From sequence record PZ495249.1: a stretch of DNA of 64,000 bases. One strand, 5' to 3'. Below are positions 7,140-40,358 of the stretch, piece after piece (the first letter of the stretch is position 1; each line of letters starts with the position of its first letter). A program made the position numbers and the translations under genes. Origin of the DNA: a phage. The notes under the pieces were generated by a model. The model was given only the letters and a program-made list of their open reading frames with translations, was not told where the DNA came from and ran no database searches.

Positions 7140-8264
7140 TCACATAATCAGTGACAGGTTTGCACTTCGCGTTGTGCTTGGTTCCAGTACCACACGGAAG
7201 CTGTCGCCTGGTTCATCGCTGTACACCACCAGTTTACCACCTGCAATCAGGTCTGTCTTCCACTTCGTGGCGTTCAGGTGAATGCGTGGATCACCTTCAT
7301 CATCAATGATGACTGCGGAACATTCTTCGAATGCTTCCTGATTGTCCTGCGTTGCCGGACGCAGATAAACATCGAGGGTTTTGATGCCACTCAGGAATGA
7401 CATTGGATTGAATCCATGCCAGTTGCTAACCCAGTTCACTTCTGCCAGTTTACCGTTCACGGTGATATTGCTGATATCCCACTTGGCTTCGCCGCCCAGG
7501 GAAATACCCATCATATCCAGACACGCTTTGAAGGTCATGTCTTTGTAGAAGTTAAGCTCTTCCACGATGCCTTGAATCACATCGAAGGAGAGTTCCAAAC
7601 TCACATCCCACAGACGCTGGAAGCTTGCCTGATGCTCTTTATCATCGAGATTCTTATCCAGATAATCGAGCATTGTCTCCAGGGAGATCTTATCATAGTT
7701 GAAGCTGTAGAAGATACGGCTCGGACGGTTGATAAAGAACTCGGAGATGAAGCCGCTATTCTTGGTCAGAATAAACAGCTTGTTACCACTGCCTGTACCA
7801 TCCAAAAGCGTTAACAGCGCTTCCTGATCCTGTTTCTTCTCGTACACTTTGTCAAACTCATCGAAGATGACAATTGCTTTCTCTGCAATCTTGCTCATCA
7901 GTTCAATGAAATTGGCATCGCTATACGCTTGCGTTACCATAATAACTGGTAAACCCTCTGCTGCCAGTTTACGGCTAATCACCTTAGCCAGCATGGTTTT
8001 ACCGCTACCCTTTGTGCCGGATAAGAGAACACCTGTGTTCTTGCCCTGCTCCGCACGACGCTTGTAGGTAGAGATGATGTGCGATGCACGTTTCTCTGTT
8101 TCACCATACAGGACGCTTGGTACTCCTGTCAAATCCCCACGACTAAGGAAGTAGTTACCCAGTGGATCACGGCTCACTGTCCAGAAACCAGCAGGGAGAG
8201 TTTCGCTCTTGACACCTGCCTCTTTGTCCACTACTGCGATATCACCATAAATTGTGTATGACAC
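7140..8264 (-). CDS. P-loop ATPase (AAA-like), paralog of 24796..25956
   Basis: Walker A GTKGSGKT and Walker B IVIFDEFD; long blocks conserved with the 24796 gene product. Confidence 0.75.
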   Translation of the reverse strand: MSYTIYGDIAVVDKEAGVKSETLPAGFWTVSRDPLGNYFLSRGDLTGVPSVLYGETEKRASHIISTYKRRAEQGKNTGVLLSGTKGSGKTMLAKVISRKLAAEGLPVIMVTQAYSDANFIELMSKIAEKAIVIFDEFDKVYEKKQDQEALLTLLDGTGSGNKLFILTKNSGFISEFFINRPSRIFYSFNYDKISLETMLDYLDKNLDDKEHQASFQRLWDVSLELSFDVIQGIVEELNFYKDMTFKACLDMMGISLGGEAKWDISNITVNGKLAEVNWVSNWHGFNPMSFLSGIKTLDVYLRPATQDNQEAFEECSAVIIDDEGDPRIHLNATKWKTDLIAGGKLVVYSDEPGDSFRVVLEPSTTRSANLSLIM

Positions 8265-14714: not shown

Positions 14715-14924
14715 ATGACAATCAGCACAACAAAGTTACCAGCTAACAAGGACAGACCGGATGATCGTCCATACGAAGTTACTGCTTACGATGACATGAT
14801 TCTGATTGAACGTGACAGTAATTTCTTGTATGATTACGAATCTATGGCTCTAACCAAAGAACAAGCCCTGTGTCTCGCTCGATACATCATGGGTAAGTAT
14901 GGAATCAAAAACGAGGAGGTATAA
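14715..14924 (+). CDS. hypothetical protein (69 aa)
   Basis: track ORF; AGAGGA RBS. Confidence 0.5.
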   Translation: MTISTTKLPANKDRPDDRPYEVTAYDDMILIERDSNFLYDYESMALTKEQALCLARYIMGKYGIKNEEV

Positions 14925-14925
14925 C

Positions 14926-15153
14926 ATGCAAATCGAATATCCTGTGTTTCGTCGTAAAGGCGTGAAAGCCAAGTTCAACCTGGATCAGTATGCAGGCTAC
15001 AGTGTGGCTGAATGGGATACTTGTCGTATCCACCTGACGAACGGTAACACCGTTCACACGGCGTGGTCGCCGGAGCACCTGGAACGCGCTATCGAGCGTG
15101 CGGAGAAAGCCGAGATTGAGGCGGAGAACTGCCGTTGGGATCTTGAGGACTGA
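14926..15153 (+). CDS. hypothetical protein (75 aa)
   Basis: track ORF 14899..15153 trimmed to Met with GAGGAGG RBS; terminator follows. Confidence 0.5.
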   Translation: MQIEYPVFRRKGVKAKFNLDQYAGYSVAEWDTCRIHLTNGNTVHTAWSPEHLERAIERAEKAEIEAENCRWDLED

Positions 15154-15158
15154 TAACA

Positions 15159-15183
15159 AAGGGGCGTAAGCCCCTTATTTTAT
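15159..15183 (+). terminator. rho-independent terminator
   Basis: GGGGC-GTAA-GCCCC stem plus T-run. Confidence 0.55.
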
Positions 15184-15193
15184 AGGAGATGTT

Positions 15194-15634
15194 ATGAACC
15201 TGATTGAACTGTTAGGGGGAATTAAATTCCCATCAGATGTTAAATTTGTCAGCCAAGATGAAGATGGTGTGATAAATATGTACCACTCAGATCCTGAGCA
15301 ACGATCTGTCGAGCAATACTGGACATGTAAATTCTTCCTGCAATACTTAGAAGGTGAAGACGGTGAAGATCTCTATCTGCCATTGGCAGATGACTTCCGT
15401 ACTGCACTTCTGACTGTTGTTGATGGTAAAGTGGCAGGTCTTGCTTATGGTTGTGTGAATGCCCCTCCCAAACCAAAAGCTGAGTTCAAAATTCTCTTGT
15501 GTCAGGAAGATTTTGATTATATGATGGATGGCATGGAGGTTGCTGAACTCACGGTAGGCATTGTCAACCAGATCCTGAAAGAGCAGGGTGTAGATATTGT
15601 CTTTGCAGTAGAAGACAGTTCTGACGAAGAATAA
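15194..15634 (+). CDS. acidic hypothetical protein (146 aa)
   Basis: track ORF; TAGGAG RBS. Confidence 0.6.
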   Translation: MNLIELLGGIKFPSDVKFVSQDEDGVINMYHSDPEQRSVEQYWTCKFFLQYLEGEDGEDLYLPLADDFRTALLTVVDGKVAGLAYGCVNAPPKPKAEFKILLCQEDFDYMMDGMEVAELTVGIVNQILKEQGVDIVFAVEDSSDEE

Positions 15635-15651
15635 TTGATAAAGGAGATCCC

Positions 15652-16722
15652 ATGAAAGTAGGCTTAATTTTCGGTAAATTTGCACCACTGACAGCAGGAC
15701 ATGTCAACTTCATCCGTATGGCAGTAGAGTCGGGCATTGATCGTCTGTATTTGTTCCTGTCTTTCGACCAGAAGTTCAACGACACTCAAACTCCGTGGAT
15801 GCAGAAGCGCCTTGGCCTCACACAACGTTTGTGGGATCTCAAGTCTCTTATCGAAGACTCTGGACTCACTCGCAAAGTGATCGTAGACTACGTGGACGAG
15901 TCCAACATTCCTGGCTACCCAGAAGGTGGTAAGGCGTATGCTGAGTTGATTCGTGCTAAGATCCCCGAAGGAGAGGTGTTGACACACGCATTCTCTTCTG
16001 AGCCGGAGTATACTGCCTACTTCTCTGAGTATTTCCCAGAGGTGGAGCATGTTGTGCTGGATGCAGAGCGCAGCGGAGTAGATATTTCTGCTACACGCAT
16101 CCGTACCAACCTGCGGGACAACTTCGAGTATCTTTCCGAGCAAGCTAAACCTCGCTTTGTCAAGCGTGTGGCTATTATCGGTGTAGAAAGCACTGGTAAA
16201 TCCACGATGACCGAGCGTTTAGCTCACCACTACGCAACAACGTCTACGCCTGAGATCGGGCGGGACATTTGCGAAGAGTTATTCTGTGGTAGTGAATTCC
16301 TAATGGATCGTGAAGCGTATCTCAAAGTTGCTATGGCACACCGTATGGAAGAATATATGCACTCCAACGAGGCACACGTTGTCCACATCTCGGACACCAC
16401 CAACTTGATCACGCACTTCTCCGGTATTTGTTCAGGCAAACTGTATCTGAACGACCATATGTTCAGGGCTTTATCTCGTGAAGAAGCTAACACCTTCTAT
16501 GACCTGGTGTTGTTCCTGTCTCCAGAAGTCGAGTGGGTAGAAGATCCTCTGCGACTGCAAAATACGCCACGGAAACGACTTGACACACATAATTTCCTTG
16601 ATATGATGGTGACTGAACATTATGTCGGTCGTGTTCCTGTTGTTCACATCACGGGTACGGACTATGAAGATCGTATCAACCAGGCTATTAAAGCCATTGA
16701 TAAACTTTTAGCGGAGGGTTGA
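15652..16722 (+). CDS. nadR: NadR-like bifunctional NMN adenylyltransferase / ribosylnicotinamide kinase (no HTH domain)
   Basis: N-terminal nucleotidyltransferase motif GKFAPLTAGH; C-terminal P-loop GVESTGKST; AAAGGAG RBS. Confidence 0.8.
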   Translation: MKVGLIFGKFAPLTAGHVNFIRMAVESGIDRLYLFLSFDQKFNDTQTPWMQKRLGLTQRLWDLKSLIEDSGLTRKVIVDYVDESNIPGYPEGGKAYAELIRAKIPEGEVLTHAFSSEPEYTAYFSEYFPEVEHVVLDAERSGVDISATRIRTNLRDNFEYLSEQAKPRFVKRVAIIGVESTGKSTMTERLAHHYATTSTPEIGRDICEELFCGSEFLMDREAYLKVAMAHRMEEYMHSNEAHVVHISDTTNLITHFSGICSGKLYLNDHMFRALSREEANTFYDLVLFLSPEVEWVEDPLRLQNTPRKRLDTHNFLDMMVTEHYVGRVPVVHITGTDYEDRINQAIKAIDKLLAEG

Positions 16723-16724
16723 CA

Positions 16725-16898
16725 ATGTTTGGAAAACGTCTTAAAGTGTTGGCTACAGAACGAGCAGTACCAAAGCTGGAACTGCGTGAATATGAAATCG
16801 TGGTGCGCCACGGCAAAGAATGGATTGTTGACGGGTACGGCGGGTTTGTTCCGGTTAAAGAACTCCACCTTGCTAAGGTGACATTCGAAAGACTCTAA
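16725..16898 (+). CDS. small protein (57 aa)
   Basis: hand-called ORF filling the gap between nadR-like and the next gene. Confidence 0.4.
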   Translation: MFGKRLKVLATERAVPKLELREYEIVVRHGKEWIVDGYGGFVPVKELHLAKVTFERL

Positions 16899-16907
16899 GG
16901 AGGGTTT

Positions 16908-17093
16908 ATGAAAGTTGGAGATGTGTTGCGTTGTACTTACTCCGTGGACAGTGATTTCACGGTAGGAAATCTCTATGAGATCGTGTCTTTTGATAAGGAT
17001 GGTGATCCTATTTTGAGGGATAACGACGATTACACTGGCGGTATCGGTGTTGTCATGAATGGCACTCGTTGGCGTTTCGAGGAGGTTGAATGA
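16908..17093 (+). CDS. small protein (61 aa), tandem paralog A
   Basis: track ORF; shares MK.GD.(L/V)RCT..(S/D)D....G.LY pattern with next gene. Confidence 0.5.
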   Translation: MKVGDVLRCTYSVDSDFTVGNLYEIVSFDKDGDPILRDNDDYTGGIGVVMNGTRWRFEEVE

Positions 17094-17281
17094 AAATCGG
17101 TGATCGTGTAAGATGTACTCGCAGCGATGACTCTGAATTGTATTCGGTGGATACTCTCTATGTGATAGAAGGATTTGGATACGGTGGAATGTTGCTACGT
17201 GATGATAAGGGTGGTCTGGATCGCATTCCTATCCCGATGAAAGGTGCATTCTGGGATTTCGAACCAGTTTTAGAAAACTAA
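17090..17281 (+). CDS. small protein (63 aa), tandem paralog B
   Basis: track ORF; ATGA overlap with paralog A. Confidence 0.5.
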   Translation: MKIGDRVRCTRSDDSELYSVDTLYVIEGFGYGGMLLRDDKGGLDRIPIPMKGAFWDFEPVLEN

Positions 17282-17305
17282 TTTAATCCTAAAGAGGAGA
17301 TGAAC

Positions 17306-17998
17306 ATGAACTTATACGTTAAATCCACCTGGACTGACTTCTACGGCTGGAAACCTTTGGAATATCTTTGGTTGGTTATCTGTACTGCCAGTATCGGTGC
17401 GATCTCTATTGCGATGAACAGTACGCTGGTTGAGTTTATCTCCTCAGTAACAGGGATTGTAGGTGCAATCCTTGTGGCAAAGGGTAAAATTTCAAGCTAC
17501 TGGTGGGGTGTCATTGCTACGGCACTCTACGCATGGATCTCATACAAATACCAACTCTTCGGTGAAGCGATCATGTACACACTCGTGTTCCTCCCGATGC
17601 AGTTCTGGGGTGCAGTGGTGTGGAGTCGAAAGCTGAATGTAAGTGGAGATCGTGCAGATGTTATCAAGAACTACCTGACGACAAAGCAACGCATTTGGGT
17701 GAGCGTCGGTACGCTGGCAGCAATTGGGCTTTATGCCTTGTTCGTAGCCGAACTGAAAGGTAGTATGCCTGGTTTGGATTCTGCAACTGCAATCCTGTCC
17801 ATTCTGGCTACCACACTTATGATGTACCGTTATGCTGAGCAATGGTATGTTTGGGTGTTGGTTAACATCGTGGCAGTGGTCATGTGGATTCAGGCTACAC
17901 TACACCATGAAGGTGGTGGCGCAGCAGTGCTGGCAATGTGGGTAGCATTCCTGCTTAACTCTCTGTTTGGAGTGTACCAATGGCGCAAGCAAAGTTAG
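17306..17998 (+). CDS. pnuC: PnuC-family nicotinamide riboside transporter
   Basis: multi-helix membrane protein with PnuC-like W/Y-rich pattern; AGAGGAG RBS (alternative ATG at 17300). Confidence 0.8.
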   Translation: MNLYVKSTWTDFYGWKPLEYLWLVICTASIGAISIAMNSTLVEFISSVTGIVGAILVAKGKISSYWWGVIATALYAWISYKYQLFGEAIMYTLVFLPMQFWGAVVWSRKLNVSGDRADVIKNYLTTKQRIWVSVGTLAAIGLYALFVAELKGSMPGLDSATAILSILATTLMMYRYAEQWYVWVLVNIVAVVMWIQATLHHEGGGAAVLAMWVAFLLNSLFGVYQWRKQS

Positions 17999-18137
17999 TG
18001 AAATACTCCCTGTACGGGAGAATGGGTTGGGACAGTGAGCCAGTTTGTCTGCACACAAATCTTAGCGCGGTACAAGTGGCTCTTAAAATAGAACATTACC
18101 TCGCCACCTGGCGACATGTTGAAGTGAGGAGAGAATT

Positions 18138-18494
18138 ATGAGTTATCAAGAAGCATTAGAAGCAACAGGTGCGGAAGTGCTGGACTACCAGGAATTTGGT
18201 AGCTATCAGGGCGAATGGTTGGCTCTTGTACGAGTTAATGGTGTTCTCGGTGTAGCTGAGGGTTCCTACGGCTCCTGCTCTGGTTGTGACTCGTTTGAGG
18301 CAGAATTTGGTTGGGGTGATCGTGATGCTGACGACTACCAGGAGCGACTCGCTGATTTCGGCAATGGTTATCTTCCGGCTTGGTCGTTCAATGAATTAAT
18401 CTCTCGCCTGGAGTACCAGGTGGAGGAGTATTCATGGGGTGATTACGAAGAAATGTTGGAGAAAGTTAAGGCTTGGAAAGAAGCCTACGAGTAA
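18138..18494 (+). CDS. acidic hypothetical protein (118 aa)
   Basis: track ORF; GAGGAGAG RBS; strongly Asp/Glu-rich. Confidence 0.6.
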   Translation: MSYQEALEATGAEVLDYQEFGSYQGEWLALVRVNGVLGVAEGSYGSCSGCDSFEAEFGWGDRDADDYQERLADFGNGYLPAWSFNELISRLEYQVEEYSWGDYEEMLEKVKAWKEAYE

Positions 18495-18503
18495 GGAGGG
18501 ACA

Positions 18504-18881
18504 GTGAAAACAACGATTGAAGTTGATTTAAAATGGTATACAATGCGTCAGAATAACTCTGGTGGTTACTTCATCCGTAATGATGAAGTGAGAGACACGG
18601 TTATCATCCAAGCAACATCACCAGAGGATGCACAGAGTCGTGCTGATCGTATAACCTGTGGAAATGACTCATACTGTGAATGCTGCGGTGAACGTTGGTA
18701 CACTTGGTTTAGCTCAACAGATGGTGAAGAAGTACCAAGTTTGTACGGTACACCAATCGACGAATTAGATCGTGAATCTTTCCGTTATGATGCAGTGTTG
18801 TACTACTTTGACGGAACCAAGCGTTTCTATAAGTTTGGTACTGGGTTCGTACCTTACGAACAACTGGAGGATGATGAATGA
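18504..18881 (+). CDS. hypothetical Cys-containing protein (125 aa), GTG start
   Basis: track ORF; AAGGAGGG 4-5 nt before GTG. Confidence 0.55.
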   Translation: MKTTIEVDLKWYTMRQNNSGGYFIRNDEVRDTVIIQATSPEDAQSRADRITCGNDSYCECCGERWYTWFSSTDGEEVPSLYGTPIDELDRESFRYDAVLYYFDGTKRFYKFGTGFVPYEQLEDDE

Positions 18882-19240
18882 TTAAGTGGCTATTGGTGAT
18901 CGCGCTGTTTTTATCTGCTGGCGCGAATGCGCGGGAAGGATTCAAAGTGGTTGCCAATGGCACTAAATTCTTTACCTGGTATGGTGGTGTAGCTTTATAC
19001 CAAGATGAAGGTAAGGACATTCGTTGTAAGCTGGACAAGAGTACAAAATCAGTGGATCAGTGGGGCGATGCCTTTAAAGCCACTGGCTTTTATTGTGGGA
19101 AGGATCTCTTCATCCTTGTCAAAGAATACATGGACATAGACCGCCAACTCTTCATCACTCTCAATCCTGCGAAATTTGAAGAAAGGAAAACCTACAAAGT
19201 AGATTTGTTCCTGGAGTACAAAGAGGACGAGAAGAAATGA
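18878..19240 (+). CDS. secreted protein with signal peptide (120 aa)
   Basis: track ORF; N-terminus MIKWLLVIALFLSAGANA. Confidence 0.6.
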   Translation: MIKWLLVIALFLSAGANAREGFKVVANGTKFFTWYGGVALYQDEGKDIRCKLDKSTKSVDQWGDAFKATGFYCGKDLFILVKEYMDIDRQLFITLNPAKFEERKTYKVDLFLEYKEDEKK

Positions 19241-19614
19241 AAGTTTTAAATTTTTACCACCTTGGCAAGGTGATTCCAGAGGGAGCGACATACATTGGAC
19301 GTGCAATGCCCCACTTCGGGCTTAAAGCCTCCAAGTTTGCCAACCCTTTTAAGCTACAAGATGGAGAGCCAAGAGGCTCAACAATTCAGCGATACAAAGA
19401 ATGGTTGTGGGAACAGATACGTTCTGGTAAGATTACCCTTGAGGATTTACTGGAATTGGAAGGTCAAAACCTTGTTTGCTTCTGTGCTCCTCAAGCTTGT
19501 CACGGAGATGTGTTGGTTGCAGCCGTACAATGGGCGAGAAGAGAATGGGACAAACGTCACCCGCCATTTAAAGATGACTATTGGGTTTGGGAGGAAAATT
19601 ATGGTAACAGTTAA
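19237..19614 (+). CDS. hypothetical protein (125 aa) with CxC..CHGDVL motif
   Basis: track ORF; ATGA overlap. Confidence 0.6.
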   Translation: MKVLNFYHLGKVIPEGATYIGRAMPHFGLKASKFANPFKLQDGEPRGSTIQRYKEWLWEQIRSGKITLEDLLELEGQNLVCFCAPQACHGDVLVAAVQWARREWDKRHPPFKDDYWVWEENYGNS

Positions 19615-24728: not shown

Positions 24729-24795
24729 GAGTTGATTTTCACAGGGGAGGTTGATATACTTCCCCTACACTTTAAAGAGAAAGAAGGAGAAATAC

Positions 24796-25956
24796 ATGTT
24801 CACACAATTCGGTAGCCAAATCTTCCTGCGTCAGAAATCCGGTGTTGATATCGACGTAATTCCAGCGGGTACTTATGGTATCGGCGTTACAATGGAAGGT
24901 GCGTTTTATCTGTACCCTAAAAACGATATGGAAGTGCCAGCCGTAACCTACGGCGACACAGATGACAAGTCCGAACGTATCATCAAGACGTTCCTGAGCC
25001 GTGATGGTAAGAACACTGGTGTTCTCCTGGAAGGTACTAAAGGCAGTGGTAAAACCCTGCAAGCGAAAATGCTGTCAGTGGCACTGCGTAAACAGGGCAT
25101 CCCTACCATCTCCATCGGTAGCCCGTTCAACGGTGAAGCGTTCATCAACTTCATGTCGAAAATCAAACAGCCGATCATGGTGATGGTGGATGAATTCGAT
25201 AAGCTTTATGCTGAGAAAGAACACCAGGACGGTCTGCTTACTCTGCTGGATGGTGTCGGTGGTTACAACAAACTGTTCGTTCTGACCAAAAACGATGGTT
25301 ATGTTTCTGAATTCCTGCGCAACCGACCAAGCCGTATCTTCTATAGCTTTAGCTATAAGAAACTGCCTAAGTCTACGCTGGATGATTACCTGGATAAAAA
25401 CCTGGTAAACAAAGCGTTCGTTGCAGACTTCGAAACTCTGTACAACCTGTCAGCAGATCTGAACTTCGACGTAATTCAGTCGCTGGTAGAAGAACTGAAC
25501 CGTTACCCTGACGATAAGTTCTCTGATGCGCTGAACCTGATGGGTATTTCGATCAACGAAGGTAGCCGTTCTGCCAAAGAGATTAAAACTCTGAAAGTGA
25601 ATGGTGTAGATCGTCTGCAAGATGTCCGTGGATTCGATCTGTCTGGAATGTCAGCACAGTCCCTGTTCCAGGGCGCTAAGTTCCAGATCAACGTAGACCA
25701 CAAAGAAGGTACTGAACGTCTGCCTAACATGAAAGGTGTTGTTACCCTTGACCAGCAGGACGCTGACGGCGATTGGTACTATGATTGCGACAAGATCTTC
25801 ATCAGCTACGATGAGAAGAGCATTAAGAGCATGGGCGGAGATGGTTATCACTTCGTGTTCGCTCAGGGCGATAACGTCATTGAGATTGAGGTGAAACAGA
25901 AAGAAACCCTCAACTACATGGATTACGCCTTCTCAGGCGCAGGTTACAACTACTAA
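24796..25956 (+). CDS. P-loop ATPase (AAA-like), paralog of 7140..8264
   Basis: track ORF 24751..25956 trimmed to Met with AAGGAGAAA RBS; Walker A GTKGSGKT; Walker B VMVDEFD. Confidence 0.75.
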   Translation: MFTQFGSQIFLRQKSGVDIDVIPAGTYGIGVTMEGAFYLYPKNDMEVPAVTYGDTDDKSERIIKTFLSRDGKNTGVLLEGTKGSGKTLQAKMLSVALRKQGIPTISIGSPFNGEAFINFMSKIKQPIMVMVDEFDKLYAEKEHQDGLLTLLDGVGGYNKLFVLTKNDGYVSEFLRNRPSRIFYSFSYKKLPKSTLDDYLDKNLVNKAFVADFETLYNLSADLNFDVIQSLVEELNRYPDDKFSDALNLMGISINEGSRSAKEIKTLKVNGVDRLQDVRGFDLSGMSAQSLFQGAKFQINVDHKEGTERLPNMKGVVTLDQQDADGDWYYDCDKIFISYDEKSIKSMGGDGYHFVFAQGDNVIEIEVKQKETLNYMDYAFSGAGYNY

Positions 25957-28299: not shown

Positions 28300-28857
28300 A
28301 TGCTAAGAGAGATTAAAGAAATATGGGCTTCTGATGCAGGACGTATTGCAGTATCTGCTGATGGTACATACGAAGTGATATTTAAACACATCACCAGGGT
28401 AGATGATGAGGGAGGGGTGTTTGCTCTGGTTGAAAGCAACATGCGTGATGGTGGTATCTTCAGTGATTTTGCTATTATTGGTGGGCGTCAGAAAATGTTT
28501 TGGAAATGCGAATATGCCAAGGAGTTAGACTATCCCGAAATGACACTGGATATATCCGCAGCAGTACATGCCAGTCGTTATGTTAATCAACCTCGTGGTG
28601 TATTTGAGGTAATGGCTTATCTCACTTCCGAAACCGGAGAATGTGCAGATTGGCTGGTAAACCCTGATCGTCAGAAAGAAGATCTCTTGGGAGAGTGTGC
28701 TGACGTTATTATCTGCGCATTGGACCTTGCACTGATGCACAAGAAGTCAACCAGTGGTCTTGATGGTCAGGAACTGGCAGACGAAGTGATCAGTCATCTC
28801 AATGATCTGCTGAAAGTTAAAGCTGAGAAATGGTTGGATAAACATGCAGCAGATTGA
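28300..28857 (+). CDS. hypothetical protein, possibly MazG-like helical NTP pyrophosphohydrolase
   Basis: track ORF; AAGGAGAGAGA RBS; ECADVIICALDLALMH helix. Confidence 0.55.
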   Translation: MLREIKEIWASDAGRIAVSADGTYEVIFKHITRVDDEGGVFALVESNMRDGGIFSDFAIIGGRQKMFWKCEYAKELDYPEMTLDISAAVHASRYVNQPRGVFEVMAYLTSETGECADWLVNPDRQKEDLLGECADVIICALDLALMHKKSTSGLDGQELADEVISHLNDLLKVKAEKWLDKHAAD

Positions 28858-29332
28858 ACCTATTCAATACCGAGAAGGAGATCTTCTTGTCGCAGCTTCG
28901 GAAGGTGAAGTAGATGCGATTGCGCACTGCTGCAACTGCTGGAACACAATGAGGAGCGGCATTGCTCCCAAGATTAAGGCTAAATGGCCTGATGTGTACG
29001 CCGCAGATTGTGCAACTATTAAAGGCGACAAGTACAAACTTGGTGGCTACAGTAAAGCTGTAGTTGAGGATGGTTTCCTGACTGTCTACAACCTGTACGG
29101 ACAGTACGGGGATAGTAAACGAGATCAAGGCATTCGTGACCTGAATTACAATGCCATCTACGATGCACTGGATGCGATGGGAGCAGACCTGGTAGCCAAT
29201 GGTGCAAGACGTGTGGGTTTACCCCTGATCGGTTGTGGCTTGGCTGGAGGTAAGTGGTCTGTCGTTGAGGCCATGATCAAAGAAACTCTGACGCTGAGAG
29301 GCTTAGAGGTAATTGTTTATCAATTGAAGTAA
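28844..29332 (+). CDS. macro-domain (ADP-ribose-binding/processing) protein
   Basis: GDLL...VDAIAHCCNC and GLPLIGCGLAGG motifs typical of macro domains. Confidence 0.7.
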   Translation: MQQIEPIQYREGDLLVAASEGEVDAIAHCCNCWNTMRSGIAPKIKAKWPDVYAADCATIKGDKYKLGGYSKAVVEDGFLTVYNLYGQYGDSKRDQGIRDLNYNAIYDALDAMGADLVANGARRVGLPLIGCGLAGGKWSVVEAMIKETLTLRGLEVIVYQLK

Positions 29333-32513: not shown

Positions 32514-33617
32514 ATGTCTAAGAGTCCATTCCTGAATGCCGTGAAAGGCAATAAGCATGGTGCAAGTGTTCTGACCACTGTTGATGACAAACGCTCTGCA
32601 CTGGCTCCAAGTGTGCTGGAAGCAAGCCCTGTGTTTGCTCCGGCAGTTGTTAAACCTGTACCTGCTCTTCCTGCAATGAGCCGCAAGGAGATTGATGGAG
32701 TGGGCGCTGAGGCAGGACTAACTCTGCGTAGCCTCAACAGCGAAGTGCTGAAACACCAACGTGGTAATCAAGGCGGGGAGATGAATGAACGCCTCACTGC
32801 CCTGATTAAACAGGCTAAACAGCTTGATCCTTCTTCAATCAAGCAGTCAAAAGGCGTTGGTAAATTCATCAAGAAGATCATGGGGCTGAAAGAAGATCTG
32901 TTTGCTGAGTACGACAACGTTAACAACCGTATTGATGTTCTGGTGAAAGAACTGGAAGGTGATGTACGTAAAGAGGAAGATTCACTTGTCTATCTGGAAA
33001 AACTGAAATCCGCTATTGCTCAGTACGCCATGAGCCTTAACCGTGATGTGGAACTCCTGACGGACACCTACGCAAAAGAGGAAGCACGTTTCTTGAATAC
33101 ACCAGAGGAACAAGTGGAAACTCGTACCGAGATCCGTGATACCCTGGATATTCTGGAGATTCGTATTGCTGACCTTAAAGCACTGCGTCTGCTGTGTGTT
33201 CAGATGGGACCACGAGTGAACAGTATGATCAAGGTTAGCGAGATGCTTATGCGATCTGCTCGTAACATAGTGAACAACGTTATTCCGGCTTACTCTGCAA
33301 ACTTCTCAATGTATATTGAGAGCTTACGCCAGGCAGAAGCTGGTAAAACTCAGGCTAATGTGTTGGATGAATTCAACACTGCAATTCAAATGGGGAGCGA
33401 TTTGGCTGCACAAAACATTATCAATGCTACGGCTCTGTCTAACCGTCAGATTCTGGACATTGAAACCCTGCGTAAAGATCAGGAAAACCTGGTTAAAATG
33501 CTGGAAGAAACCAACCGCATCAATACCGAGGCTCGCGCCGCTCGTATTGATTACATCAACGAGGTTCAATCCCTGGAAGATGGGATGATCCAAAAAGTCA
33601 AATCTGGCTTAGTGTAA
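32514..33617 (+). CDS. TelA-like (toxic anion resistance family) helical protein
   Basis: track ORF; AAGGAGAAAGA RBS; all-helical 367 aa; C-terminal ILDIETLRKDQENL..EETNRIN pattern recalled from TelA/YaaN proteins. Confidence 0.6.
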   Translation: MSKSPFLNAVKGNKHGASVLTTVDDKRSALAPSVLEASPVFAPAVVKPVPALPAMSRKEIDGVGAEAGLTLRSLNSEVLKHQRGNQGGEMNERLTALIKQAKQLDPSSIKQSKGVGKFIKKIMGLKEDLFAEYDNVNNRIDVLVKELEGDVRKEEDSLVYLEKLKSAIAQYAMSLNRDVELLTDTYAKEEARFLNTPEEQVETRTEIRDTLDILEIRIADLKALRLLCVQMGPRVNSMIKVSEMLMRSARNIVNNVIPAYSANFSMYIESLRQAEAGKTQANVLDEFNTAIQMGSDLAAQNIINATALSNRQILDIETLRKDQENLVKMLEETNRINTEARAARIDYINEVQSLEDGMIQKVKSGLV

Positions 33618-37846: not shown

Positions 37847-38410
37847 ATGATCTTCCACATTACTCCCTATCTTTCTGGTGATATCGGCAAAGGCATCAAC
37901 GATACCATCCGTGAACTGCCGGAAGATAGTTGGATTTGCTTGAGGGATATCGACACGATGTTCCTACTACCAGAACAACCGATGTGGCTTGAAACCCTCG
38001 TCCGTTCTAACCCAGAGTATGATGTTATTGGTGCATCATGCAACCGCTTGGGATCTACTTACCAATTGTTCGGTAACGAAATAAGTGACGATTCAGACAT
38101 ACGCAATCACATAGAAATTGCGAAAGCAGCCCGAACAGCCTGGGGCAATAGCATTGAAGATGTTCCTCTGGGAGTACCACTTGCAGGATTCTTCTTATTA
38201 TTCAGGAAGAGTTTGTGGCAAGAAATTCCATTCGAAGAAAGATCTATTCAATTCGATTTAATCTTCTCTAATACTCTACACGCAGCAGGAAAGCGATTAG
38301 GAATCATGCGAGGAATGTATCTGTTCCATACTTATCGTCTTGGAGCAATCGATCCACGTAGAGCCATTTCGCATCTCATTCACTGCCAGGATATGGAGAA
38401 GGTAATATGA
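37847..38410 (+). CDS. hypothetical protein (187 aa), possible sugar-nucleotide transferase
   Basis: track ORF; CAGGAGGGAGAA RBS; heads a three-gene block with two glycosyltransferase-like paralogs. Confidence 0.55.
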   Translation: MIFHITPYLSGDIGKGINDTIRELPEDSWICLRDIDTMFLLPEQPMWLETLVRSNPEYDVIGASCNRLGSTYQLFGNEISDDSDIRNHIEIAKAARTAWGNSIEDVPLGVPLAGFFLLFRKSLWQEIPFEERSIQFDLIFSNTLHAAGKRLGIMRGMYLFHTYRLGAIDPRRAISHLIHCQDMEKVI

Positions 38411-38436
38411 TTGATAATTTAAGGAGGATGTTAAAC

Positions 38437-39405
38437 ATGCTTGTTCATAAGCCCCGCTTATATTGTGATAACAAGTTAGGGAGTGGGTGCGACTATCACC
38501 GAGTGGTGATGCCTTTTGCTGATAATAAATTCAAACCAAAAGAGAATGTATTGGTGTTCAACCGTATTTATTCTCGTGGTGCAGAAGAGGTTCGCCGTCT
38601 GAAAGAGCGTGGTGTTAAAGTGGTAGTAGATTTAGATGACTTCTATGAACTTAACCCTGAGCATTACCTGGCAAGCGTGTTCACAAGTCACACACAGAAC
38701 ATCATTGACATGGTGAAATTAGCAGATATTGTTATCGTCACCACTGAATATCTGGCTTACAAGGTAAGGCCACTGAATAGAAATGTGGTGGTTATCCGTA
38801 ACGCACTGCCTTTCGACACTGGTCAGTTTACCCTGAGTGAAGATAAAGAGTCAGACACTCCGCTGATATGGGCGGGTGGTGCAAGTCACTATCCTGATCT
38901 ATCTCTTGTCTCGAACAGTTTTGATGATGATTTGTTAACAATTGCCGGATATGAAGAGCACAAGTCTGCTCCTGCTGGTAGTCATCAGCAATTGACAACT
39001 GCCGAGTGGAGAAAAGTCAGACGTAAGCTACCAAATGCACAATACAAACCAGCAGTACATCATTTAGGCGAGTATATGTCGGTGTACGATGGTCATGCCG
39101 TAGCTATTGCTCCCTTGGTTGATAACGACTTCAATGCTTGTAAAAGCAACTTGAAGATCCTGGAGGCAGGAGCTAAGGGACTACCTATCATTTGTTCTAA
39201 GGTGTTACCATATTATAATCCGGTGGATGCTAACGTGGTGTTTTATGCTGAATCCCGCGCAGAATGGCACTACGAGGTGGTGAAACTTCTTCGTAATCCA
39301 AACTACGCAGAGGATCGTGGTTTAATGCTTGCAGAACACGTCAGAACACATTACAATCTTGATGATGCAAATGAATTGCGCCGACAAGTGATCGAAAGTT
39401 TATAA
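38437..39405 (+). CDS. putative GT-B-type glycosyltransferase, paralog 1
   Basis: track ORF 38407..39405 trimmed to Met after AAGGAGG; C-terminal KSNLKILEAGAKGLPIICS motif. Confidence 0.6.
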   Translation: MLVHKPRLYCDNKLGSGCDYHRVVMPFADNKFKPKENVLVFNRIYSRGAEEVRRLKERGVKVVVDLDDFYELNPEHYLASVFTSHTQNIIDMVKLADIVIVTTEYLAYKVRPLNRNVVVIRNALPFDTGQFTLSEDKESDTPLIWAGGASHYPDLSLVSNSFDDDLLTIAGYEEHKSAPAGSHQQLTTAEWRKVRRKLPNAQYKPAVHHLGEYMSVYDGHAVAIAPLVDNDFNACKSNLKILEAGAKGLPIICSKVLPYYNPVDANVVFYAESRAEWHYEVVKLLRNPNYAEDRGLMLAEHVRTHYNLDDANELRRQVIESL

Positions 39406-39413
39406 GGAGTTCT

Positions 39414-40358
39414 ATGCCTAACATTGTGCTTGACACACGCGACGGACATAATTATAGTGTCTGTGATTTCCATAGAATTATCCTTCCATACAAACGAGCG
39501 CTCACCATTAACCCACAACACAATATCTTCGTGTTCAATGGTGTGCCTACTCGTGGGAAGTCAGGATTCCTGGCTCTCAAACAACTTGGTTTCAAAATGG
39601 TTATGGATCTTGATGACTCTCTACATATTCCAGAAGGACATATGCTTGAGGACTTGTTTGATACCCGTATCCGTGATGACCTCAAGTGGTTTTTGGAACG
39701 GAGTGATTTGGTAACAACAACTACTCCTGCTCTCCAGAAAGAACTCTCAGAATATAATGACAACGTGCATATTGTGCCGAATGGTTTGCCTTTCGATGAA
39801 TGGCAATTCACCATAACAAAGGATCGTTATTCTAAGAGTCCACTGGTGTGGGCTGGCAGTGAAACCCATAAACATGACTTGGCAATCCTACCGCCCCTCG
39901 GTAAGATGCTAACACTCTGCGGATTCCGTAGAGACAAAGAAGAGCTAAGTAGCTTGCAATGGATATTGATACGAGAAGATATTCAACCTGATTGTATCTA
40001 TGAAGGTGTCCGACCATACGCCACTTACATGGAATCGTATGACGGTCATCAGGTGAGCATTGCTCCACTTGTGGATAATCCTTTTAATAATGCAAAAAGC
40101 AATCTCAAGATTCTTGAGGCTGGAGCCAAAGGCTTACCGCTGATTTGTTCTCCTCGTGAGAATTATTTCACCGAAGAGTTTAAGGATCTGGTTTACTTTG
40201 CCGATTCATTATCCGAATGGAAAGATCTGGTAGAATACTTAGTAGAGTCTCCAGATATTTGTGTTGAAAAGGGAATGGCCTTAGCCAAATATGTACGTGC
40301 TCAATACAGTATTGACGCATTAAACGAGACTCGTAGATTACTTATTGAGAGGTTGTAA
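39414..40358 (+). CDS. putative GT-B-type glycosyltransferase, paralog 2
   Basis: track ORF; AAGGAG RBS; same C-terminal motif (KSNLKILEAGAKGLPLICS) and overall colinearity with paralog 1. Confidence 0.6.
   Translation: MPNIVLDTRDGHNYSVCDFHRIILPYKRALTINPQHNIFVFNGVPTRGKSGFLALKQLGFKMVMDLDDSLHIPEGHMLEDLFDTRIRDDLKWFLERSDLVTTTTPALQKELSEYNDNVHIVPNGLPFDEWQFTITKDRYSKSPLVWAGSETHKHDLAILPPLGKMLTLCGFRRDKEELSSLQWILIREDIQPDCIYEGVRPYATYMESYDGHQVSIAPLVDNPFNNAKSNLKILEAGAKGLPLICSPRENYFTEEFKDLVYFADSLSEWKDLVEYLVESPDICVEKGMALAKYVRAQYSIDALNETRRLLIERL

Follow-up and report, generated by a model that had tools for sequence, protein, structure and literature searches.

A nadR-pnuC locus in a relative of Klebsiella phages as a predicted nicotinamide riboside salvage module

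Two phage systems, NARP1 and NARP2, have been experimentally proven to act against bacterial defence by reconstituting NAD+ (Osterman et al., 2024). The discussion of that study, together with its Fig. S3B, proposed the NadR-PnuC operon of phages as a further NAD+ reconstitution route, which was not examined there, and the same physiological suggestions for phage NadR-PnuC were made by Iyer et al. (2022). The literature on the Pnu transporters, in turn, describes trapping of the substrate by phosphorylation and the colocalization of Pnu genes with genes for kinases. Against this background, we analyzed a 64,000-nucleotide stretch of phage DNA (sequence record PZ495249.1; hereinafter the window, to which all coordinates refer and on whose + strand all features given with coordinates lie), in which a sequence-only reading had singled out an NAD+ salvage pair made up of a NadR-like enzyme and a PnuC-family transporter, with the hedged suggestion, already published in both of these studies, that such a pair could support replication or offset NADase defence. 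As detailed below, the combined evidence from family and structure matches, motif conservation, and gene linkage makes it likely that this phage carries a module for the salvage of nicotinamide riboside (NR), in which uptake by PnuC and the kinase and NMN adenylyltransferase (NMNAT) activities of NadR would yield NAD+. The pair as such is already known, being annotated in the closest relatives of this phage and in hundreds of other phages.

The nadR-like gene (15652..16722), whose ATG is preceded at a distance of 7 nt by the Shine-Dalgarno sequence AAGGAG, codes for a 356-aa protein that family and structure matches identify as a bifunctional NMN adenylyltransferase/ribosylnicotinamide kinase without a helix-turn-helix (HTH) domain. 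Profile searches recovered PHROG 3462 (E 6e-112) and TIGR01526 (E 4e-54, profile positions 1-324 of 325 covered), and structure searches aligned residues 2-353 with residues 9-349 of PDB chain 9x6f (E 2e-53) and residues 2-355 with residues 3-347 of the Haemophilus influenzae NadR 1lw7 over the full length (E 2e-38), with further matches to 8x7f (E 3e-32) and 6gye (E 6e-18). At the level of individual domains, the N-terminal nucleotidyltransferase models TIGR00125 and PF01467 gave weak matches to residues 3-66, and the C-terminal kinase domain was recovered as PF13521 (AAA_28; E 5e-20, residues 172-341). An alignment of 17 sequences (27-91% identity), including the H. influenzae NadR and the phage NadR 9x6f, showed the catalytic motifs of both domains to be intact throughout. 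In the NMNAT domain, the nucleotidyltransferase motif GKFAPLTAGH (residues 8-17; 15673..15702) has P12, G16, and H17 invariant; the threonine that takes the first position of the HxGH signature, giving the variant TAGH, falls inside the (T/H)xGH range and is likewise found as TxGH in the crystallized phage NadR 9x6f. The second nucleotidyltransferase motif, ISATRIR of the ISxTxxR type (residues 145-151; 16084..16104), has invariant S146 and R151 and a nearly invariant T148. In the kinase domain, the Walker A P-loop GVESTGKST (residues 177-185; 16180..16206) keeps G177, E179, S180, G182, and K183 invariant, and the Walker B region HISDTT (16384..16401) contributes the invariant D248, which pairs with the FIDTD segment of the H. 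influenzae enzyme; the Walker A lysine and Walker B aspartate are described as essential conserved residues in the NadR literature. Finally, the LID region WVEDPLRLQNTPRKR (16534..16578) aligns with WVDDGLRSLGSQKQR of 1lw7 and has invariant D298, R301, and R309. The 356-aa frame, its two signature motifs, and the identity of its product as a NadR-like NMNAT/NR kinase, all of which the earlier reading had called from the letters of the sequence, are hence borne out by full-length matches and a complete set of catalytic residues.

This protein scores below the curated equivalog cutoffs of the family (TIGR01526, 184.1 versus 341.15 bits; NF005988, 166.9 versus 201 bits), which points to a divergent phage clade of the family rather than an enterobacterial-type equivalog. 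Enterobacterial NadR is trifunctional, serving as both repressor and enzyme; unlike it, the predicted phage protein lacks the N-terminal HTH DNA-binding domain. The earlier reading had made this claim, and it is confirmed by several features of the translated sequence: NF005988, the model for enterobacterial NadR, is matched only from profile position 65 of 411 onward, the reading frame already opens at the earliest start codon available downstream of an in-frame stop, the protein starts just 7 residues before the NMNAT motif, and the 146-aa ORF immediately upstream has no Pfam match. In the literature searched, we found neither a published assay of phage NadR activity nor a paper tied to PDB 9X6F, 9X6H, or 8X7F, and no activity, transport, or expression data on any phage NadR-PnuC pair.

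The second major component, pnuC (17300..17998), codes for a predicted nicotinamide riboside facilitator of 232 aa, or of 230 aa from the ATG at 17306, which is the likelier start because the Shine-Dalgarno sequence AGAGGAG abuts position 17300. Its hydropathy profile is that of a multi-transmembrane (TM) protein, and searches recovered PF04973 (E 9e-39, 133.6 bits versus a cutoff of 27.3), the PnuC-specific equivalog TIGR01528 (111.4 bits, above the cutoff of 42.45), and the Neisseria mucosa PnuC structure 4qtn (E 1e-34), of which chain residues 12-230 of 244 are spanned, the additional N-terminal TM among them. TM6 carries the substrate-binding motif WxxW(x)3N as WYVWVLVN (residues 182-189; 17843..17866), which aligns with WALWIVVN of 4QTN, and two gate tryptophans, W108 (in QFWGAVVW) at the cytoplasmic end of TM3 and W228 (in GVYQW) at that of TM7, match tryptophans of the same structure. 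In the Pnu family, WxxW(x)3D/N is the ligand-binding motif, ending in Asn in PnuC and in Asp in the thiamine transporter PnuT. These features support the prediction that the transporter of the window is a PnuC-type nicotinamide riboside transporter. With the enterobacterial PnuC subfamily model NF011926, by contrast, it obtains only 52.3 bits against a cutoff of 335, so far below that it appears to be no recent copy of a host gene.

Another substrate altogether (thiamine, riboflavin, a deoxynucleoside, or a nucleoside analogue) might be handled by such a transporter and kinase, making the module unrelated to NAD+. The Pnu family does include PnuT for thiamine and PnuX for riboflavin as well as uncharacterized members, and the NadR of the window lies under its curated equivalog cutoff. 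Against this stand the passing score of the transporter with the PnuC-specific TIGR01528, the terminal Asn rather than the PnuT-type Asp of its WxxWxxxN/D motif, the nature of the partner, a full NadR that in its NMNAT domain aligns collinearly with the NAD-bound H. influenzae NadR, and the retention of the PnuC-NadR linkage across phages. We therefore regard a substrate outside NAD+ metabolism as very improbable, and nicotinamide riboside remains the preferred cargo.

The five genes from nadR through pnuC, that is, these two and three small ORFs between them, are tightly packed on one strand; each has its own Shine-Dalgarno sequence, and no terminator was found between nadR and pnuC. On the 5′ side, a terminator-like GC hairpin with a T-run (15159..15176; AAGGGGCGTAAGCCCCTT then ATTTTAT; a consensus match only) probably forms the upstream boundary of the nadR transcription unit. 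Downstream of it lies a 146-aa ORF with no assigned function (15194..15634; dN/dS=0.17-0.19), a conserved neighbor in sister Klebsiella phages, with 64-67% identity to the ORFs directly 5′ of nadR in KP13-26 and phi1_175008. Within the 3′-terminal part of nadR, a promoter-like sequence (16580..16607; TTGACA, a 16-nt spacer, TATGAT, and an extended TG; 11 of 12 positions by consensus match only, in a region where 24 such sites were found versus 18.9 expected) might drive the small ORFs and pnuC from an internal position. An NAD riboswitch or other RNA element at the locus was considered and rejected, as a search of Rfam at gathering thresholds returned no match anywhere in the window, and relaxing the cutoff to E 1 for 14900-18300 brought up none either.

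The first of the small ORFs (16725..16898; phrog_10388, E 1.5e-18) can be read in a longer form from 16719 but most likely starts at the ATG at 16725, giving a 57-aa product that matches its homologues; it is 95% identical to that of KP13-26 and is present in 90 phage records. In Erwinia phages, 12-13 kb separate it from nadR or pnuC, so it has no specific tie to the module. The other two are tandem paralogues belonging to an "MKxGDxVRC" family: a 61-aa ORF (16908..17093) shows 43% identity (E 5e-11) to the following 63-aa ORF (17090..17281), whose start overlaps the preceding stop (ATGA) and which shares 62% identity with the N-terminal portion of a phi1_175008 ORF of 98 aa. Copy number and gene order of these paralogues vary among the sister phages. 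The small ORFs were accordingly rejected as a third component of the module, the 57-aa ORF being remote in Erwinia phages and the other two being variable-copy paralogues. The arrangement of three small ORFs followed by a PnuC-family transporter thus stands as first read, with 16725 and 17306 as the likelier starts. The module as a whole is situated 5′ of genes for a helicase, a primase/helicase, and a DNA polymerase. Elsewhere in the same 64 kb we also observed a macro-domain gene, of a class tied to ADP-ribose and NAD+ conflicts.

Among the sister Klebsiella phages compared (KP13-26, OP617743; phi1_175008, PQ360875 and PP357458; KP2025, PP919962; Stephanstirmvirinae), the same order is seen, with a 146-150-aa ORF followed by nadR, small ORFs, pnuC, and a 53-aa ORF, and GenBank labels the two main genes nadR or nicotinamide-nucleotide adenylyltransferase, and pnuC. 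With 80-82% nucleotide identity to these, about 82% identity in NadR, and 89-90% in PnuC, the phage of the window is a distinct species-level relative. The number of small ORFs between nadR and pnuC differs, with three in the window (including the tandem duplicate), two in KP13-26, and three in a different order in phi1_175008. A sister phage additionally encodes Sir2-like, ATP-dependent ligase, Nudix, and epimerase proteins, for which tblastn against the 64-kb window returned nothing at E 1e-3; any copies of these NAD-related genes in the present phage would have to be located beyond that stretch.

Beyond these relatives, a survey of 50,697 phage records placed NadR in 773 and PnuC in 783 of them, the two being spread over genera in nearly the same way, and the PHROGs collection contains both families. 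In IMG/VR, a PnuC homologue occurs within 6 kb of NadR, always on the same strand, at 67 of 76 NadR loci (88%); two of the nine loci without a nearby PnuC are cut by a contig end. The two genes are adjacent in phages as different as the T5-like phages, Vibrio phages, Bacillus phages, and ICP1 (in the last, the pair is present in nine records only), and FKP3 keeps nadR without pnuC next to it. nadR-pnuC is hence a co-oriented phage module conserved across very different phages, and, together with the retained WxxWxxxN motif and gate tryptophans of the transporter, this bears out the sequence-testable parts of the salvage-pair claim. Both genes are under strong purifying selection, with dN/dS ~0.06-0.14 overall (0.06-0.14 for nadR and 0.07-0.09 for pnuC), values obtained with synonymous sites near saturation.

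These data bear directly on the notion that both genes were picked up from a host, do nothing for the phage, and are decaying as passengers. Nothing specific speaks for it beyond the presence of equivalents of both genes in host enterobacteria; the low dN/dS, the intact reading frames and catalytic motifs, and the conservation of the pair in hundreds of phages all speak against it, and the low scores with the enterobacterial models (NF011926, 52 versus 335; NF005988, 167 versus 201) argue against recent capture. Selection and conservation effectively refute this reading, to which we give almost no weight.

In terms of mechanism, the NR salvage module would be expressed within an early or middle block of phage genes 5′ of the replication genes. 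By analogy with the Pnu family, PnuC would insert in the host inner membrane and let NR enter by facilitated diffusion, whereupon the P-loop kinase domain at the C-terminus of the phage enzyme would phosphorylate it to NMN. As NMN is no Pnu substrate, it would therefore be trapped in the cell, and the N-terminal nucleotidyltransferase domain would then join it with ATP to form NAD+. The infected cell would thereby maintain or enlarge its NAD+ pool, spending 2 ATP on each NAD+, and the module would need extracellular NR, or NMN turned into NR by periplasmic phosphatases. Having neither an HTH repressor domain nor an NAD riboswitch, it would stand outside host NAD feedback control. Gene identities, domain layout, intact motifs, selection, and linkage are read from the data themselves, whereas we infer the enzymatic activities of NadR, the substrate of PnuC, when the genes are expressed, and what the phage gains from them. 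Enterobacterial hosts have nadR and pnuC of their own, so that any added value of the phage copies is hypothetical.

A different main job could be the recycling of NMN inside the cell, with the NMNAT domain returning to NAD+ the NMN that the NAD+-dependent DNA ligase of the host, or other NAD+ pyrophosphatases, set free during heavy replication, and PnuC being secondary. NMN is indeed the by-product of the bacterial ligase LigA, the module is located in a region of replication genes, and FKP3 retains nadR though no pnuC follows it. However, PnuC lies within 6 kb on the same strand at 88% of the viral NadR loci, purifying selection on pnuC is as strong as on nadR, and the kinase domain, which is dispensable for such recycling, has its motifs all intact; the sister phage's own ATP-dependent ligase would further lower reliance on the NAD+-dependent enzyme. 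On balance, we consider recycling an unlikely main role, and the salvage of imported NR the better account of the locus.

A narrower claim concerns the selective reason for such salvage, with which it is compatible rather than exclusive: that the module is a counter-defence device, a third phage pathway of NAD+ reconstitution that lets replication be completed in the face of SIR2, TIR, and other NADase effectors. The idea is the one advanced by both Osterman et al. (2024) and Iyer et al. (2022), and its principle is established by NARP1 and NARP2 (Osterman et al., 2024) and by NrsAB in ICP1, where, according to the ICP1 literature, isolates escape restriction by the NADase system Nezha only when they have NrsAB. 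The module moreover shows the accessory, patchy distribution common among anti-defence genes (e.g., its presence in nine ICP1 records only and the FKP3 nadR without an adjoining pnuC), and the macro-domain gene in the window provides a link to ADP-ribose/NAD+ conflict. On the other side, the NADase product nicotinamide is the starting material from which NARP1 and NARP2 restore NAD+, whereas NadR-PnuC uses neither nicotinamide nor ADP-ribose; since it needs fresh external NR, its supply would not scale with the damage. Further, no supporting experiment was found in the literature searched, and no NARP1 or NARP2 enzyme was detected among the window ORFs scanned. We also considered ICP1 as evidence against an anti-defence role and dropped it, as the pair is present in nine ICP1 records only and the Nezha-tested isolates may not carry it. 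We accordingly hold counter-defence to be a tentative and rather doubtful explanation for the upkeep of the module, and are similarly guarded about the route it implies, namely that NadR-PnuC might overcome NADase-based abortive infection by taking up fresh NR and not by reusing breakdown products. Should the module indeed keep NAD+ up in infected cells, it would represent another phage escape from NAD+-depleting bacterial immunity, and one tied to an external vitamin precursor, such that success on NADase-armed hosts would be set by environmental NR or NMN, for example, in the gut.

Comparisons with characterized systems place the predicted NR salvage module of the window among several established themes. 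Its closest cellular counterparts are the H. influenzae NadR (1LW7) and the N. mucosa PnuC (4QTN), the same combination of a two-domain enzyme and a transporter, to which the phage proteins are collinear over the full length with conserved motifs; the H. influenzae enzyme is ~30% identical to that of the window, and its residues 1-59 (the HTH region) are missing in the phage copy. Bacterial NR salvage operates by the same uptake-and-trapping logic, the difference being that the copy in the window is virus-encoded and would be expressed from the phage programme. The Lactococcus lactis NadR (6GYE) naturally lacks the HTH domain and has both enzymatic activities, so an HTH-less NadR is a normal form of the enzyme, though this cellular gene is only distantly related (E 6e-18). 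Among viruses, the T5-like phages of the BASEL collection (Osterman et al., 2024, Fig. S3B) have, like the window, an HTH-less NadR with a TxGH motif beside a PnuC on the same strand (~35% identity in NadR and ~38% in PnuC); in them the two genes are directly adjacent, whereas ~580 bp of small ORFs separate them in the window. The structures 9X6F and 9X6H are of a T5-like phage NadR and match that of S114 and other Salmonella phages at 100% identity. With the concept in print and the genes available in tractable T5-like BASEL phages with a deposited NadR crystal structure, the window adds one more member, found in a Klebsiella-phage-like genome of the Stephanstirmvirinae, and no new concept. 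NARP2 (Nampt/NadV and Nmnat, e.g., in vibriophage KVP40) and NARP1 (Adps and Namat) are likewise two-gene phage routes to NAD+. The window ORFs scanned yielded no PRS-like, NAPRT-like, or Nampt enzyme of these pathways, and a search of the literature for a "NARP3" returned no relevant paper. The only overlap is the final step of NMN adenylylation, which is common to NARP2 and NadR-PnuC. Unlike NARP1 and NARP2, NadR-PnuC has a kinase in place of a phosphoribosyltransferase and adds a membrane transporter; and where those pathways start from nicotinamide (with ADP-ribose in NARP1), thereby reusing the products of NADases, NadR-PnuC would start from imported nicotinamide riboside.

Two motifs had suggested that a 356-aa protein joins a nucleotidyltransferase to a P-loop kinase, and we recovered the ORF (15652-16722, + strand) with both in place: GKFAPLTAGH, a nucleotidyltransferase (T/H)xGH motif (residues 8-17), and GVESTGKST, a Walker A P-loop (residues 177-185). 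The protein matches PHROG 3462 ('nicotinamide-nucleotide adenylyltransferase'; E 6e-112), covers positions 1-324 of the 325 in TIGR01526, the model for NadR with NMN adenylyltransferase (NMNAT) and ribosylnicotinamide kinase (RNK) domains (E 4e-54), and is collinear with NadR proteins whose structures are solved (9x6f, E 2e-53; H. influenzae 1lw7, E 2e-38; 8x7f; L. lactis 6gye). The proposed lack of an HTH domain also holds: alignment to the enterobacterial NadR profile NF005988 begins only at position 65 of 411 and thus leaves out the HTH region; the absence is real because the ORF cannot be extended upstream and a domain search of the preceding 146-aa ORF found no recognisable domain. In this the protein resembles L. 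lactis NadR, for which an HTH-less form with both activities is the normal one (PMC7221760). Its scores fall below both curated NCBI equivalog cutoffs (TIGR01526, 184 vs 341; NF005988, 167 vs 201), which marks it as a divergent NadR of the phage type, not of the host type.

We aligned 17 sequences sharing 27-91% identity, H. influenzae NadR and 9x6f among them; the columns that do not vary coincide exactly with the functional motifs, whose roles have been described (PMC7221760): P12, G16 and H17 in (T/H)xGH; R140, S146 and R151 in ISxTxxR; G177, E179, S180, G182 and K183 in Walker A; D248 in Walker B; and D298, R301 and R309 in the LID. Thr replaces the first His of HxGH in the clade of the window protein, as it does in 9x6f. 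PDB 9X6F/9X6H is 100% identical to the NadR of T5-like Salmonella phages, so that a crystal structure of a phage NadR already exists.

The second member of the pair, predicted as a PnuC-family transporter lying after three small ORFs, was likewise borne out in family and gene order: the 232-aa protein (17300-17998, + strand) passes the Pfam PF04973 threshold (E 9e-39) and the PnuC-specific equivalog TIGR01528 (111 bits vs a cutoff of 42), and aligns with residues 12-230 of N. mucosa PnuC 4QTN (E 1e-34). It retains the TM6 binding motif WxxWxxxN (as WYVWVLVN) and the two gate tryptophans. Its poor score against the enterobacterial PnuC subfamily model (52 vs 335) indicates that the gene was not copied recently from a host. 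Because the Shine-Dalgarno (SD) sequence AGAGGAG (17293-17308 region) directly abuts the ATG at 17300 and is normally spaced from the in-frame ATG at 17306, translation probably starts at the latter, giving 230 aa.

The window is part of the genome of a large lytic phage whose relatives are Klebsiella phages in the subfamily Stephanstirmvirinae, of which KP13-26, phi1_175008 and KP2025 show ~80-82% nucleotide identity to it across the nadR-pnuC region. Comparison with two of these sister phages gave dN/dS values of 0.06-0.14 (nadR) and 0.07-0.09 (pnuC), synonymous sites being close to saturation; selection maintains both genes. The block lies within a long series of small + strand genes that begins at a divergent region at ~11.1-11.5 kb, and upstream of helicase, primase/helicase and DNA polymerase genes, a context from which early or mid-infection expression is probable. 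A terminator-like hairpin (15159-15176) precedes the 146-aa ORF; downstream of it, as far as pnuC, the genes follow one another closely, every one has an SD of its own, and no intervening terminator was found. Rfam has no match in the window, hence no NAD riboswitch. Within the 3' end of nadR we noted a near-consensus sigma-70-like site (16580-16607, + strand; TTGACA, 16 nt, TG-TATGAT; 11/12), a candidate promoter that, by its consensus match, could allow separate transcription of the small ORFs and pnuC.

We considered whether the three intervening + strand ORFs belong to the module. The first (16719/16725-16898; 57 aa, phrog_10388) is conserved beyond its neighbours (95% identity to KP13-26; dN/dS 0.05) and occurs in 90 phage records from Stephanstirmvirinae, Certrevirus-like and Erwinia phages; it is tied to nadR/pnuC only among the closest relatives, and in the Erwinia phages it lies 12-13 kb from either gene. 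The second and third (16908-17093, 61 aa; 17090-17281, 63 aa) lie in tandem and are paralogous (43% identity, E 5e-11); they belong to a small 'MKxGDxVRC' family whose copies differ among KP13-26, phi1_175008 and the window in number, length (57-98 aa) and placement with respect to the 57-aa ORF. Given this distance and variability, the three do not appear to be part of the NadR-PnuC module.

The pair itself recurs widely. By tblastn, 773 of 50,697 phage records have a NadR homologue and 783 a PnuC homologue, with near-equal counts by genus (NadR/PnuC: Vibrio 337/363, Salmonella 173/174, Klebsiella 48/47, Escherichia 38/38, Bacillus 24/24, Lactobacillus 18/18, Prevotella 15/15, Erwinia 14/14); under independence only ~12 records would be expected to hold both. 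In the independent IMG/VR set, a PnuC homologue accompanies 67 of 76 NadR loci at a distance of no more than 6 kb; the two genes share a strand in every case, their order varies, and two of the other nine loci are cut by a contig end. Vibrio phage ICP1 (MW794141.1, 11833-13593) carries adjoining NadR (35% identical) and PnuC (34%) genes annotated only as hypothetical proteins; their presence in just nine ICP1 records (MW794141-MW794149) makes them an accessory module there.

A separate observation concerns Klebsiella phage FKP3 (PP895363.1, 21753-23759), in which the nadR homologue, annotated 'RNA ligase', forms one ORF of 668 aa with halves 92% and 79% identical to those of the window NadR. 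A 311-aa in-frame insert sits exactly within its Walker A P-loop (GVES/CVDNL...HIFITGN/CGKST, slashes marking the junctions); with Cys at position 1, a terminal Asn and a +1 Cys it looks like an intein, but Pfam detects no Hint or homing-endonuclease domain in it. No pnuC lies within 2.5 kb after this gene.

Taken with the observed gene identity, motifs, selection and linkage, which uphold the sequence-only reading, the best-supported model is a classical nicotinamide riboside (NR) salvage route run from the phage genome, with predicted activities, substrate, timing and benefit. PnuC would ease NR entry; the NadR kinase domain would convert NR to NMN; Pnu transporters do not move NMN, which would hence be trapped, a principle of Pnu transport plus phosphorylation taken from the literature; and the NMNAT domain would form NAD+ from NMN and ATP. 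Having neither HTH domain nor riboswitch, the module may, we propose, escape host NAD feedback.

Elsewhere in the window, a 162-aa Macro domain ORF (28844-29332, + strand; PF01661, E 4e-5) is a second gene tied to NAD+/ADP-ribose conflicts. Among solved structures it comes closest to the bacterial macrodomain 5e3b (E 9e-18) and to human OARD1/TARG1 (E 2e-8), and it is predicted to be a hydrolase of the ADP-ribose-removing type; it adjoins a MazG-like pyrophosphatase (28300-28857), and its sister-phage homologue is annotated just 'phosphatase'. Elsewhere in its genome, the sister phage phi1_175008 (locus 16312-17190) encodes a Sir2-like 'NAD-dependent deacetylase', an ATP-dependent DNA ligase, a Nudix hydrolase and nucleotide-sugar epimerases, and thus has its own NAD+-consuming functions; the window contains no homologue of any of these proteins. 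We also recovered DUF7296 (18504-18881, +; E 2e-29) and DUF4326 (19237-19614, +; E 8e-20) ORFs shortly after pnuC, two paralogous phrog_2376 ATPases ~17 kb apart (7140-8264, -; 24751-25956, +; E ~1e-101 each), and a TerD-like 'tellurite resistance' homologue (phrog_5890; 32514-33617, +) upstream of a three-gene glycosyltransferase cluster (37847-40358, +; phrog_14179, then two tandem phrog_7162 paralogues) with possible DNA- or surface-modifying roles.

The window pair is thus real and rightly interpreted, but ordinary, one more instance of an auxiliary module already well known in phages: its sister-phage genes already bear nadR/pnuC annotations, papers on phage genomes have reported the pair since 2012 at the latest, and Iyer et al. 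2022 (PMC9503650) include it in their list of phage NAD+ synthesis domains. An anti-defence role, too, has already been hypothesised: Osterman et al. 2024 (bioRxiv 10.1101/2024.02.11.579819) noted that phage NadR genes usually share an operon with a PnuC gene and that this operon, which lay outside their study, may be yet another NAD+-producing pathway. The literature searched contains no experimental test of a phage NadR-PnuC pair. ICP1, most isolates of which are sensitive to Nezha if they lack NrsAB, was considered as a natural test of an anti-defence role, but only nine ICP1 records have the pair and the argument was dropped. Such a role is plausible but has a weakness, and a true third NAD+ reconstitution pathway, dependent on external NR, seems to us less likely than not. 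Apart from the pair, none of the window ORFs scanned resembles NadV or a PRS-like or NAPRT-like enzyme. Whereas the proven pathways NARP1 and NARP2 rebuild NAD+ from nicotinamide, a product of the NADase reaction (Osterman et al. 2024, bioRxiv 10.1101/2024.02.11.579819), NadR-PnuC would require external NR, and its capacity would therefore not scale with the damage.
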